Part shown: piece by piece, positions 46,507 to 63,081 of the stretch | How positions within the stretch are numbered: the stretch's first letter is position 1 | Layout of the letters: every line of letters starts with the position of its first letter | NCBI GenBank assembly: GCA_951406725.2 | Contig: OX597828.1 | Location: 22,258,001 to 22,322,000 of the forward strand | Direction: 5' to 3' | Length of the DNA: 64,000 nt | Origin: Octopus vulgaris | Lineage: Eukaryota | Position numbers and translations under genes: made by a program | Notes under the pieces: model-generated | Databases searched by the model: none | Told to the model about the DNA's origin: nothing | The model's input: only the letters and a program-made list of their open reading frames with translations

Positions 46507-46721
46507 AATGATAGAAATGGTAAGACAACAAAAGAATGAAAGAGACCTCGATATTATGAAAAGAGAGGAATTTATCTATAAATATAGTATGTGACAGTTA
46601 TAAAACTTATCAGGCCCTCGACGAAAAGATTTTTTCGATGGTCCGATAACTGAAGAGATGTCGGCATGGCTTTTCGCCCCGACATCCGAAACTCGGAGTT
46701 TTATCATGGCTACATATATTT
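46507..46721 (+). mobile_element. Penelope-like pLTR remnant with hammerhead and partial inverted tail
   Basis: Contains the hammerhead at 46645-46705. 46580-46608 resembles the reverse complement of 46697-46721. Flanked by (TA)n and (CA)n(TA)n. Confidence 0.68.
46645..46705 (+). ncRNA. Minimal type I hammerhead ribozyme motif
   Basis: Stem I gataa/ttatc; core CTGAAGA; stem II gatgtcgg/ccgacatc (+1 C); GAAA; quasi-palindromic stem III ctc-g-gag; U-U cleavage site at 46699-46700. Confidence 0.82.
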
Positions 46722-46790
46722 ACACACACACACACACACACACACACACACACACACACACACACATATATATATATATATATATATATA

Positions 46791-47030
46791 TAGTGAGAAT
46801 TTACAAAAGACAAAAGACGAAGTTTAACGCTCGGGAAGTGAGAAAGAGTTTTACGTCTCAAGTCTATGCTCTTCAATAGAAAGGAGCATAGAAATAAACA
46901 AGGAGAGAGAATATAATAAAGGTTTAGTAGCTAGCGAGCCATCTTGGTTAATACCGGACAGAAGGGTCACATAGGAGACCTAGGAAGAAGGGAATATAAT
47001 AAATTAGCGGTGATTCCAAAACAAAGGTGC
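46791..47030 (-). mobile_element. Second copy of the 24045-24183 repeat family, abutting (TA)n
   Basis: Minus strand reads cttt-ctattga-a-gagc-atag-actt-gaga-cg-ta-aaac...cccgagcgttaaact...aattctcacta then (TA)n. Confidence 0.6.
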
Positions 47031-48842
47031 GCGTGCGTGTATATATGACAGGCTATATCAAAATACTATATACAAAAACAAAAAAAAAAACGCAAACGAA
47101 CCTTCAATGTCCAGTTATCTACCTTCGCGATCTCGTTATTAGGAAGGAAAATAAAAATAATAAAAAGAAGAAAATTAAGTCATGTGATAAAGTGATAAGG
47201 ACAGGCTATAATAGTGATTGTCAACTATTTATTTGAAGGGGATTTAAAGGAACTTCTGTTTGATATAACAATACATTTGGTTTTTCCTGCAGTAGAATCT
47301 TTTAGAATCCTTTTATGACTGCCTAGCGTGTATATAGTTTCTTAAAAATAAGTTAGTAAAGTCTCCCCCACATACATTTACCTTTTTATATACTCACATA
47401 GTTATCTAATGTAGTTGTTGAAAATAATTTTATACATGCATATGCACACATATATATCTATTTACATATGCATACAGCTTACATACAAAATATGTACGCA
47501 TAATATACACTTGCATACGCACATATATTTTTATATATGCACATATATATATACGACTTACATACAGAATATATACAGAGTATATACACAGGAATACATG
47601 CATATGCACTCACTAATACACACACTAACCCCCACACACACATCTCCTCCCCCCATATATATAAACTCACTCAAGAAAATATATTCCGAGAGATACGAGA
47701 ATGAACGAAATGAACGAGCGTATATTTATTGTATTATCGTTAAACTTGTGATGCGCATTGATAACACTTTCGCAGGAGGACCAACCAAATTTTCGATGAC
47801 GTAACGCTGAATATATACGAGACAGGTGTAAACAACTTATCTCTATATATATATTACCATGAAGGAAAGAAGAATTACAATTTTCCCCGACTGCTTAAAT
47901 AATCGGTTGGAATTTAACCGGAAAACGATTATCTTCTTTGCTTGTTAAATCCGCTTTTATTAAGGCATTAGAAAACAAAAATGGTTGTGTGTTATAAAAA
48001 TATCTTTATATACCCGCCTGTCTGTCTGTCTGTCATAAACAAAAAACGCGAAAAAAATATTAATCAAGATACCTAGAACTCCTAGTCACGTTCAACTCTG
48101 CGAAGATAGCAATTTCCTTCAAGGACAAATTGGAACAATGAGAAAACGAGATGCAAAAGATTTGCAGTCGAAAGCTAATGAAACACATGCACCCATCATC
48201 AGCTGCCTAATGTTTATCATTATGTTTTTGATGCCTGGCTAGTACCACTGATATTCGCGTATTGTATGTGTGTGTATCTATGCAGTATATGTTGATAGGT
48301 ATCTTTGCATGTATACCTGTGTGTACCTACGTATATGCATGTGTTGCGGTTAACAGGCACAAAGTTTTTATCATCTAACTGCGTTCATTAAGTATTATGT
48401 CAGGCTTGGAAATTCACAAAATAACTACGTTATCAATGCACACCTGAGTTACATCTCTAACATTTGAAATACTTATTTGCCGAAATGCCGTTGCAGGATT
48501 ACATTTTCCTTGCAAAACTTAAATAATGGAAGCGTAATAAATTTTCGGCATTATATTAAGATAAATATATTTCCAGAGAAATAAGAATCAGGCCTACTTT
48601 ACGTTGCTGTGCAGATTTAATACAAGACTCATAATAATCAAATGGATACCTTCAGGGCAGCGGTTAAATGACGTTGAAAGTATTCATGATCGTTATGGAT
48701 CGACAGGAGTGCTGTATATACCAGTAATCTATATAATCATGTGAATACATATATGTACCTAGGTATATATATAGGTGTGTGTGTATATATATATACGTGT
48801 ACGCATATTCATAAATGTATATATATATATATATATATATAT

Positions 48843-48898
48843 ATAAGATTGTAAATAAAACGTGAAAATCAGACAAGGTTGGAATTCTTTTTATAAAT
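48843..48898 (+). mobile_element. Truncated solo tail of the 62761-63081 element, embedded in (TA)n
   Basis: ataagattgtaaataaaacgtgaaaatcagacaaggttggaattc is identical to 63024-63068, with (TA)n on both sides. Confidence 0.9.
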
Positions 48899-50432
48899 AT
48901 ATATATATATATATATCTATATATATATATATATATATATATATATGTACACACACTCGTAAATGTGCGTGTGCATATATGTATATAAAAAGGTTTGTGC
49001 ATATGTAAATATATGAGCGTGCGCCCACACACACACAAACATGCGCACACCAGGTTAAACAATCACACATACGCACATGTAACAAGTCATCTATCTGATT
49101 ATGTAAATATCTATCTATCTATCTAACTATTTATCTATCAATCTATTTATCTATCTGTCTTTCTGTCTACCACTCTCTCTGTATATATATATATAAATAG
49201 ATGGATATATATATACATAAATGCACACGCAAAAGTACATACAGTCATAAACACATACATGTATAATACACACACATGTATTTAGCATATATATGTATAT
49301 ATATGTATATATATATGTGTGTATGCATGTGTGTGTCTGTAAATATTAATATATGCCCACGTATGTATGCTTTTATTATGTTTATATGCATTCATATGTG
49401 TGTATATATATATATATATTTTTTTTTTCAAATATACATGAATATACACTACATATACATATATGCGTGTATATATGTATTTAGTATATGTATGTGCATG
49501 TATATATGTATATATAAATGTGTATATTTGTGTTTGCATATATAATTGCTTCTGTAAGCGTATATAAGTGCGTGCGCGAATAAAGCTTTCAATATACCGT
49601 TTACAAAACAAAACAGTAATATTTACTCATGATTATATTTATTAACATATTAAAAGTCTGTCATATCGATGTGTATTATCGTATCTGTTGACAGGCTGGC
49701 GGCTTTTATATCGTTGCACACAAACGACAACCATTTACCGCAAATTAATCCTTTTAGTTTTATATCCAAATAATATTTTATTAAAATATATTGAAAATAA
49801 TCAATGGCATCTTTTTAAAAAAGCCACTGAACTTGATGAACTTTTATTTCGTTTCATTATGTTAGACTTCCCACTGAGAAATCCGTATTAGATGGATGTA
49901 TTATGAAATGAAAGTACGTTGCGATATACTGTAAACACCCTTATCGGTTATATATTATTTTGAGAATTGGATTAGAAAATAACGAAGCGCCGCTAGTTAT
50001 GTTGCAGTATGTAGTGTTGTGTAAATAAAAGGATGCAATTTACATTGATAACAACAGAAGTGAAAGATCCTAAACACACACGTACACTTTATTACACAAA
50101 ACACATACACGCACACATACATACACAAATACACACAAGTGTGAATGTATGTATGTATGTATGCATGCATGTATTTATGCATGCATATATATGTGAGCGT
50201 ACAGTTTCTCATGTATATAGATAAATGGTATGTTTTGTAGAGTACATACGTATGACTGTGTACTTCCACATCTGCTTCAATGAATGTAAATTGTGTGTGT
50301 GTGTGTGTATATATATATATATACATATACTACATATATATACATATATGTATATATGTTTTAGTATATGTATATATATATATATATATATATATATATG
50401 TCAGATAAGTAACAAGGATGTCAAGGTGTTAG

Positions 50433-61277: not shown

Positions 61278-61795
61278 TGCGAAGAAGCTTGCTTCGAAAC
61301 GACATGATTCAGGATACACCCCAACTGCGCGACCCCTTCGGTAAGTGTCTTCTACTATATCCTCAGGACCAAAACCTTGTGAGTGGATTTGGTAGACGGT
61401 AACTTGAAGAACCCCCATATATACATACATACATACATACATACATACATACATACATACATACATACATACATACATACATATATACACACACATATAT
61501 ATATATATATATATATATATATATATATATGTATGTATGTATATACATGTCTATGTATGTATGTCGGTGTTTGTGTGTGTGTGTTTGAGCCGGTGATTGA
61601 GCTCCCGCCCACCGCTTGAAAACCGGTGTTGGTATGTTTACATCCCCGTAGATTAGCGTTGCCACAAGAGAAACCGACACAATAGGTACTAGGCTTACAG
61701 AAAAAAAAATGTCCTGCGGTCAATTGGTTCCACTAAAACACTTCAAGGCGGTGCTCCAACATGGCAGCAGGGACATGACTGAAACAAGTAAAAGG
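61278..61795 (+). mobile_element. SINE-A with expanded internal (CATA)n(TA)n
   Basis: ccttgtgagtggatttggtagacgg ... aggcggtgctccaacatggc...tgactgaaacaagtaaaa. Confidence 0.87.
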
Positions 61796-62053
61796 TAAAC
61801 GCGCGCGCAAGTAGACACACGTGCGAGCACACAGGCACACACATACACACGCATATTTATCGACACACCTTTACATCCACAGTCACATATTCATACTTTC
61901 TAGCAAAGAGAGAGAGAGAAAGAGAGAGAAATAGTGGTTTTTACGAATAAGAAAATAATAATAACGTCGAGTTAGTTCAGTATATAATATAGGGCGAAAA
62001 GTAGAAAACAACAGGAAGGTATTGTGCAAAGAAATGAAGATGGAATGCAACAA

Positions 62054-62473
62054 TCTTTTCTACTCTAGGTACAGGGCCCGAAATGGTGAGGGAGGCGGAC
62101 CAGTCGATTAGATTGACCCCAGTACGCAACTGGTACTTAATTTATCGACCCCCGAAGAATGAAAAGCAAAGTCGACATCGACGGAATTTGAACTCAGAAC
62201 CTAAAGACAGACGAAATACCGCTAAGCTTTCCGACCGGCGGACTAACGTTTCTGCCAGCTCGCCGCCTTACACTTGGTAATATTCTTTTCTACTCTAGGC
62301 ACAAAGACCAGAGGTTTGGGGGAGGGGGCCAGCCGATTAGATCGACCCCAGTACGCAATTGGTACTAAATTTATCGACTCCGGAAGGACGAAAAGACCGT
62401 GGCGGAATTTGAACAGACGAAATACTGCTAAGCATATCGCCCGTGTGCTAACGTTTCTGCCAGCTCGTTGCCT
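62054..62473 (-). mobile_element. Two head-to-tail full SINE-B copies (alternative tail)
   Basis: 62054-62267 and 62283-62473 each run tcttttctactctagg...tttctgccagctcg. Confidence 0.9.
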
Positions 62474-62760
62474 AGGACGGAATGTAATAATGAAGAAAAT
62501 GAGGGGCTGGAGTAATGAGTGCGTATATCCATATACATATATATACACACTCACATATATATATCCACACACCTACACATATATTTATATATACACATGT
62601 ATACTACGTTATGTATGTTTATGGCTGAATATGCATATATATATATATATATATATATATATATATATATATATATATATATATATATATATATATATAT
62701 ATATATATATATATATATATATATATATATATGGGTGTGTGTGATTGTGTATAGAAGAAT

Positions 62761-63081
62761 ATATTAATAAAAGGAATTCCAATCTTGTCTGATTTTCACG
62801 TTTTATTTACAATCTTATAATGATATATTATAAGATAATATATTATAATAGAATAAAATAAAATAAAATAGTAGAATGTTAAATGTTCATTCTGATTGAA
62901 CTAGTACTTTCATGCATTCAATTCTGCAATCTTCGGGTTCATGTAGTAGTGGTGACAGTCATGCTTAAAATTGTTTTATTTTATTTTATTCTATTATAAT
63001 ATATTATCTTATAATATATCATTATAAGATTGTAAATAAAACGTGAAAATCAGACAAGGTTGGAATTCCTTTTATTAATAT
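62761..63081 (-). mobile_element. Fold-back element (108-bp near-perfect inverted arms) with central hammerhead; Penelope-like pLTR remnant
   Basis: 62761-62868 versus 62974-63081 shows one mismatch seen by eye. The right end runs into (TA)n, and a long (TA)n lies about 30 bp from the left end. Confidence 0.88.
62897..62941 (-). ncRNA. Minimal type I hammerhead ribozyme motif, CCGAAGA core variant
   Basis: Minus strand reads tgaac-CCGAAGA-ttgca-gaattgaa-tgcat-GAAA-gtac-TA-gttca. Stem I is a perfect 5 bp and stem III is palindromic. Confidence 0.75.

Follow-up and report, generated by a model that had tools for sequence, protein, structure and literature searches.

Penelope-like elements (PLEs) with a C-terminal endonuclease (EN+) have a published insertion architecture (PMC8557442, PMC3846280, PMC4209133, PMC11167929, PMC2377424, PMC6765202, PMC13282606), in which the inverted 5′ copy, the one-sided tail and the bias towards (TA)n are already described, while the making of inverted structures has been named an open question (PMC8557442). 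Hydra-clade PLEs, including Hydra-1_Obim of Octopus bimaculoides (Craig et al., 2021, PMC8557442), are marked by the protein motifs RWK, DKT, CxCX5C, CxxC and CxH with no CCHH, insert into (TA)n and carry a small hammerhead ribozyme near the 3′ end, whose stem III is palindromic and whose cleavage site often has a U. The Neptune and Nematis PLEs are marked by GxKF, DKG, YxDD and a CX2-5CxxC linker before the GIY-YIG endonuclease (PMC8557442). Minimal PLE hammerheads are of type I, with a short stem I and a palindromic stem III, and occur as single or opposite-strand copies 100-700 bp apart that derive from truncated PLEs (Cervera & De la Pena, 2014, PMC4209133). Metazoan retrozymes without long terminal repeats (non-LTR) are likewise short, free of open reading frames (ORFs), equipped with type I hammerheads and related to PLEs (PMC7229834; bioRxiv 10.64898/2026.07.22.740005). 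The present analysis concerns three hammerhead-associated fold-back elements in a 64,000-nt stretch of the Octopus vulgaris genome (contig OX597828.1, positions 22,258,001 to 22,322,000), called the window throughout. The elements themselves are ordinary: they are PLE debris, their architecture matches the published one, and they lie in a genus for which a Hydra-clade PLE is already listed. The parts worth follow-up are a rule in the pairing of their 3′ ends, a reading of the short copies as run-off products of a leader, and a parallel change in the hammerhead core.

Three truncated PLE ends in the window

The three elements can be described with considerable confidence as 5′-truncated, head-to-head inverted pseudo-LTR ends of three PLE families (Hydra type for elements 1 and 2, Neptune or Nematis type for element 3); the parent element's own enzyme likely produced them anew with every insertion. 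That they are PLE sequences is close to certain. Their parts, together with a solo copy of the third family, are the following.

46509..46602, minus strand: inverted arm of element 1, 90% match to L173:2451-2552
46631..46722, plus strand: direct arm of element 1, 87% match to L173:2365-2462
46645..46705, plus strand: minimal type I hammerhead motif of element 1, from the strict motif scan
48843..48897, plus strand: solo 55-nt family-3 3′ end in its short form, inside (TA)n, 94% match to L149
50402..50596, minus strand: inverted arm of element 2, with the short 3′ end, 73% match to L041
50605..50877, plus strand: direct arm of element 2, with the long tail (~91 nt), from an older Hydra-type PLE, 79% match to L041 and L134
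62733..62975, minus strand: long-tail arm of element 3, from a Neptune/Nematis-type PLE, 94% match to L149 and 94-96% match to the 3′ end in 30 of 30 ORF loci
62897..62941, minus strand: minimal type I hammerhead motif of element 3, from the strict motif scan
62974..63081, plus strand: short-end arm of element 3, without hammerhead, identical to the other arm at 107 of 108 nt

The inverted arm of element 1 consists of the long tail (~69 nt) and the last pseudo-LTR bases of a Hydra-clade PLE; the direct arm is a 5′-truncated pseudo-LTR with a small deletion, which stops at the short 3′ end and has no long tail. Its hammerhead combines a canonical CUGAAGA core with a 5-bp stem I, an 8-bp stem II, a quasi-palindromic stem III and a GUU triplet. 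Element 2 retains a hammerhead remnant in each arm, one with a CCGAAGA core and a stem I broken by the loss of its 3′ strand (50497-50438) and one in which stem II is damaged and the triplet is GUG (50678-50754). The long-tail arm of element 3 runs from ~6 nt inside a putative transcription start to the end of a 28-29 nt tail, and its hammerhead has a core with the U4C change (CCGAAGA), a 5-bp stem I, a 4-bp stem II closed by U-U, a palindromic stem III (GUAC) and a CUA triplet.

The original prediction, made from the letters of the window, had presented the elements as mutually unrelated fold-backs built of an inverted tail copy, a spacer, a minimal hammerhead and a tail, all in or beside (TA)n. 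The absence of mutual similarity was borne out, the observed local scores being reached by 72, 175 and 139 of 200 shuffles, and the stem III sequences (ctcggag, cggccg and gtac) are as claimed, with computed self-duplex energies of -11.5, -16.1 and -6.8 kcal/mol for elements 1, 2 and 3. The solo tail placed at 48843 is real. The layout holds for the inverted arm, the hammerhead and the tail; there is no true spacer, the supposed spacers consisting of a short junction and of the pseudo-LTR stretch that precedes the hammerhead, and the long tail of element 1 sits on the inverted arm only. Element 3 begins at 62733 and not at 62761, once its tail is included, and its hammerhead lies on the minus strand. 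The (TA)n setting needs one amendment, as the right end of element 1 meets (CA)n first and (TA)n next.

Scanned on both strands for strict type I hammerheads, the 64-kb window returned two matches, 46645-46705 (+) and 62941-62897 (-), compared with a mean of 0.03 matches over 60 dinucleotide shuffles; none of these shuffles gave a match with a palindromic stem III and a stem I of at least 5 bp. The hammerhead attributed to every element was thus recovered in elements 1 and 3 and lost in element 2, both copies of which are damaged. Family 2, unlike the two copies in element 2, has an intact hammerhead motif. An Rfam scan of the window gave no hammerhead among the best 150 of 409 matches, those 150 being only microsatellite-driven microRNA matches. 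Covariation of the stems across copies was found at one place, a compensatory pair in stem II of family 2 (A-U in 31 and G-C in 29 of 68 copies) that shows the strongest linkage among polymorphic columns and reflects a single subfamily event. The common variants of the family-1 hammerhead are wobble-compatible, located in loops, or fall at a single position where 66 of 70 copies have a mismatch.

All three elements proved to be multi-copy in the genome. First-look candidates numbered 2176, 1644 and 1113 for elements 1, 2 and 3 (40 scored in each case), exact motif matches 2001, 182 and 1641, and the reversed-motif controls of the three families gave 0 matches. In the exact-motif searches the matches listed are the first 100 of each, and the presence of arrays was judged within them.

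The parent families

Copies of family 3 run upstream into an ORF with Pfam matches to RVT_1, the reverse transcriptase (RT) domain, and GIY-YIG, of which RVT_1 passed the cut-off in one search only and GIY-YIG only in another. The ORF, of ~1,175 aa, was pieced from two overlapping loci of one copy; its ATG lies 71 nt past the short end, and its protein carries the motifs GLKF, DKG and YLDD and a CX4CxxC linker (GLKF, DKG, CNDSRCGTC, CIKCPNC and IYVGQT in L095). The 30 loci returned for this protein all end in the family-3 unit of the window. In three loci (L149, L150 and L153) the order is an inverted truncated copy, a direct copy, likewise truncated, that carries hammerhead and tail, and finally the ORF; the tail lies at the junction between pseudo-LTR and ORF in L149, and same-strand neighbours form tandems with a period of 4258-4273 bp. 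A young RT + GIY-YIG PLE family is the source of element 3, which corresponds to its 3′ pseudo-LTR. By its motifs this family may be placed with Neptune or Nematis, two clades that the motifs do not tell apart, and it shares with them the partial tandems, the inverted 5′ copy, a tail of 29 nt and microsatellite targeting (PMC8557442). It differs from them in a long N-terminal extension, in the U4C core of its young subfamily and in a sharp 5′ hot spot. The family has its own (TA)n run directly after the long tail (L149:1946-1960, reverse-complement numbering), and its short end lies in TAATATAT, so that pairing with a (TA)n target could help priming.

For family 1, a single stretch of locus L173 contains an endonuclease, a 3′ untranslated region (UTR) of ~750 nt, the hammerhead and the long tail, and the family-1 hammerhead of the window is reached within 1.5 kb in 18 of the 25 loci found with the L173 endonuclease. 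The coding copies of the family proper (L156, L173) are broken. A sister family has an intact frame of 717 codons in L337 (G000:C1:144827500-144834000), with the Hydra-clade marks RWK, DKT, YKDD, CxCX5C, CxxC and CxH and with neither GxKF/Y nor CX2-5CxxC. Its tail lies at the junction between pseudo-LTR and ORF in L337, and partial tandems or inverted truncated copies occur in L337-L346. The sister family is very young, with 2273 exact motif matches, 99.6% similarity, intact ORFs and tandem arrays of ~2.58 kb period.

Family 2 shares ~1.9 kb of upstream sequence that leads to a degraded endonuclease, missed by the Neptune-type protein search and detected by the Hydra protein. The endonuclease remnant in L142 aligns with L337 at 35% (E 9e-13) and keeps CxCX5C (with an internal stop), CELC and CMH; L142 in turn matches L134, which contains element 2 at 80%, with 75% over 1460 nt. 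RWK and DKT were not seen in family 2, for which a degraded remnant was available, nor was a partial tandem. Judged by protein motifs, elements 1 and 2 come from the ends of Hydra-clade PLEs. Families 1 and 2 differ from the listed Hydra-1_oBim motif in their pseudo-LTR sequences and have long 3′ UTRs, and their tails (~69 and ~91 nt) exceed the 30-40 nt quoted as typical (PMC8557442).

The reading of the elements as truncated PLE insertions that target (TA)n, one of two offered by the original prediction, was supported in all three families by continuity with coding sequence and by the (TA)n counts given below. The anticipated extension of longer copies into an RT + GIY-YIG ORF was seen in full for family 3, and for families 1 and 2 as broken or degraded copies or through the ORF of the sister family.

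Several side observations concern these families. Seven near-identical family-1 copies with common flanks (L156, L157, L164-L166, L170, L171; C17:67-80 Mb) probably represent a segmental duplication or a larger repeat, and family-1 counts are therefore inflated in alignments that disregard position. A hammerhead core as in the published Hydra-1_oBim motif shares a (TA)n-rich stretch with two neighbouring family-1 copies (L074, ~1900-1960). PLE families are also nested in the (TA)n-containing UTRs or flanks of one another (L130:1360-1470; L179:889-1578; L301), examples being a family-1 tail fold-back inside a family-2 copy and a young Hydra copy upstream of another.

Arm ends and the origin of the fold-backs

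Ends were read in the first 30 motif matches by position of each family, to which 40 family-3 and 20 sister-family regions picked from the first 100 matches were added; the picked regions included the visible close pairs, and those passed over were mostly long or tandem copies. The 3′ ends of families 1, 2 and 3 fall into two classes, a short one and a long-tail one, with tails of ~69, ~91 and ~29 nt, respectively. The enrichment of (TA)n at the 3′ ends was confirmed: (TA)4 occurred within 30 nt in 35/45, 25/37 and 46/48 arms of families 1, 2 and 3 and in 55/55 arms of the sister family, compared with 7% of random windows. The two classes are combined in a nearly strict manner. Head-to-head pairs consisted of one long and one short arm in 16/16, 8/9 and 15/15 cases for families 1, 2 and 3 and in 12/12 for the sister family, 51 of 52 in total, where independence would predict half. 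All three elements of the window are such pairs, and the larger set of loci, query-biased ones included, gave 83 of 87. Fold-backs with two short ends occurred once in 52, while short-ended solo and full-length copies are common. A search of the literature for this rule, for twin priming in PLEs and for U4C in PLEs found no statement, although subscription papers (e.g. Arkhipova, 2006; Evgen'ev & Arkhipova, 2005) may hold one.

This pairing favours twin priming from two start sites, which we consider the somewhat better bet for the origin of the fold-backs. The RT/GIY-YIG protein would cut both strands of a (TA)n tract; of the two cut strands, one would start complementary DNA (cDNA) synthesis at the long-tail site, the downstream one on the element RNA, and its partner at the short site further upstream. 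Both cDNAs would stop early, often at the 5′ end of the RNA just upstream of the hammerhead, and microhomology would join them head to head. The ingredients resemble those described in vitro for the Poseidon element PAc of Anolis, in which RT starts at two tail-bounding sites, targets are AT-rich, both strands are cut and extended, and the protein is predicted to be a dimer (Frangieh et al., 2024, PMC11167929). With the start sites placed at the junction between pseudo-LTR and ORF, a transcript begun within the pseudo-LTR would give an ORF-less, hammerhead-bearing copy of 100-250 nt.

Such a transcript is suggested by the 5′ ends of family 3. These were visible in 51 of 71 arms, and 22 of the 51 lie 215-222 nt from the short end, 16 of them at 221-222. 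This hot spot lies 30 nt downstream of TATTTATA, with CCAAT boxes further upstream at -82, -119 and -137, and may represent a transcription start; a TATA box plus initiator in pseudo-LTRs, with a transcription start within the upstream pseudo-LTR, has been published. Contigs of four runs cover the leader, although starts and strand are not readable from contigs. The symmetric family-3 fold-backs at the hot spot carry four subfamily haplotypes and varied junctions, which indicates that they were made repeatedly and not amplified from one master. In the sister family, 5′ ends cluster at 91-121 nt (18/48), just upstream of the core at 83.

The hammerhead does not appear to set the ends of the copies. 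In family 3 the cleavage site is predicted at 140, and 0/51 5′ ends come as close to it as 10 nt; ends exactly at the corresponding site numbered 1/30 in family 1, 0/29 in family 2 (four lying 4-7 nt downstream) and 1/48 in the sister family, with the limit that the search motifs of these last three families are close to the cleavage site, so that shorter arms were missed. The hammerhead would be a passenger of the pseudo-LTR, with cleavage predicted as a dimer or with the help of protein; in PAc, cleavage is protein-assisted and unneeded for insertion (PMC11167929).

The strongest competing explanation, less probable in our view but to be taken seriously, is that one PLE cDNA begun at the long-tail site folds back and is copied until the short site, later deletions in the palindrome making the arms unequal. 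Self-priming has been proposed for PLE palindromic junctions (PMC3846280), and short inverted stubs at the family-3 5′ hot spot are consistent with it. The lengths of the two arms are correlated (Spearman 0.61), differing by no more than 10 nt in 16 of 51 pairs, and both arms carried the same subfamily markers in the 5 of 5 insertions read. The short arm, however, was longer by more than 10 nt in 22 of the 51 pairs (the long arm in 13), sometimes by hundreds of bases, which would require extra deletions, and the single short-short fold-back among 52 is left unexplained when short-ended solos are common. Two sister-family fold-backs (L360 and L367) break near the same internal site (428-442 nt) with their arms reversed, possibly a site of RT pausing or RNA breakage.

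Several points weigh against twin priming of leader transcripts and against the assignment of the families. The correlated arm lengths and the shared markers also fit the hairpin copy of one cDNA. Frangieh et al. (2024) saw no start-site difference between strands in vitro, and their paper reports no strand-specific site use and, in the parts consulted, no counts of tail pairing in fold-backs (PMC11167929). The transcription start of family 3 is read from the TATA/CCAAT-linked position of the hot spot, that is, from motifs only; the 5′ cluster of the sister family has no obvious TATA box, and families 1 and 2 show broad truncation with no sharp 5′ end. Pfam returned 0 families for the Hydra-type ORF of L337, whose clade is read from motifs. 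Neither family 2 nor family 1 proper, whose sister stands at 64-71% amino-acid identity, yielded an intact ORF, so that some short copies may have moved in trans.

Movement in trans is central to the other reading offered by the original prediction, that the short units are true retrozyme-like, non-autonomous families with masters of their own, moved by PLE proteins and perhaps passing through circular RNAs. Most copies are indeed short, 5′ arm ends lying within 700 nt in 30/30 cases for family 1 and within 500 nt in 27/29 for family 2; family 3 has a fixed unit of 221 nt, and according to a preprint, animal retrozymes descend from PLE pseudo-LTRs (10.64898/2026.07.22.740005). Nevertheless, this reading is improbable and the claim was not upheld. 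Longer copies of all three families reach PLE coding sequence, the 5′ ends lie away from the cleavage site, the 221-nt unit leaves out the upstream TATA/CCAAT motifs, and the symmetric fold-backs do not share one haplotype or junction. Retrozymes have canonical hammerheads and circular RNAs and are arranged head to tail in arrays of 150-450 bp, whereas the window families form head-to-head pairs and solos of truncation series, and no such short arrays occurred among the 100 matches listed for each of the four motif searches. Finally, DNA elements of the kind of miniature inverted-repeat transposable elements, with terminal inverted repeats, TA target sites and an incidental hammerhead, would account for inverted arms with (TA)n flanks, but this reading may be set aside, being refuted by the continuity with PLE ORFs, into which the 5′ truncation series lead, and ill-matched to unequal arms, one-sided tails and the A-U/G-C covariation in stem II of family 2.

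The U4C core and minor features of the window

In two unrelated PLE clades, the hammerhead core of the youngest expansions shows the weakening U4C change. In family 3, the copies with CCGA are 99.3% alike (47 copies) and those with CUGA 94.8% (16 copies), and CCGA was found in 31 of 31 cores in the ORF loci. Family 1 has CUGA in 16 of 17 cores, at 90% similarity, and its sister family CCGA in 42 of 42, at 99.6%. The majority core of family 2 is also CCGA (46 C and 19 T of 68), the T share being roughly that of CpG decay at other positions. The cores of family 2 and of the young sister of family 1 differ from the CUGA of the canonical rows consulted in table S2 for Hydra-clade PLEs (PMC8557442), and the window families depart from the minimal hammerheads of Cervera and De la Pena (2014) in the U4C core and, for families 2 and 3, in having no G10.1-C11.1 pair (PMC4209133). 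Ribozymes with U4C are reported to be considerably less active in vitro, yet the change is viable in a viroid (PMC3088659). Its presence in expanding lineages of two clades suggests selection for a slower ribozyme, a suggestion only, the pattern comprising three lineages in one genome, which are few.

Taken together with twin priming, these data invite a broader proposal, which we put forward tentatively and would not yet call probable: PLE integration would be obligately two-ended, a dimeric RT/endonuclease making one long and one short arm per event, short hammerhead copies would be run-off cDNAs of the 5′ leader, and U4C would have become fixed in expanding lineages of two clades through selection for slower cleavage. 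The near-strict pairing rule in four families of two clades and the promoter-like 5′ hot spot amount to a concrete model for the existing in vitro system, and the young, near-identical families with paired CUGA and CCGA subfamilies are material on whether the PLE hammerhead helps or hinders transposition.

The host genome is large (2.8 Gb) and microsatellite-rich, and the repeat search of the window was dominated by simple repeats. The ORFs of at least 130 aa in window positions 40000-64000 are mostly microsatellite frames, and no remnant of a PLE ORF was found in the window by tblastn with the Neptune-type and Hydra proteins. A degraded family-2 fragment at 45272-45353 on the minus strand matches L041 at 72% over 87 nt and includes the 3′ half of the hammerhead. 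Copies of an abundant repeat resembling a short interspersed element directly adjoin elements 1 and 2 (46200-46490 and 50940-51015).

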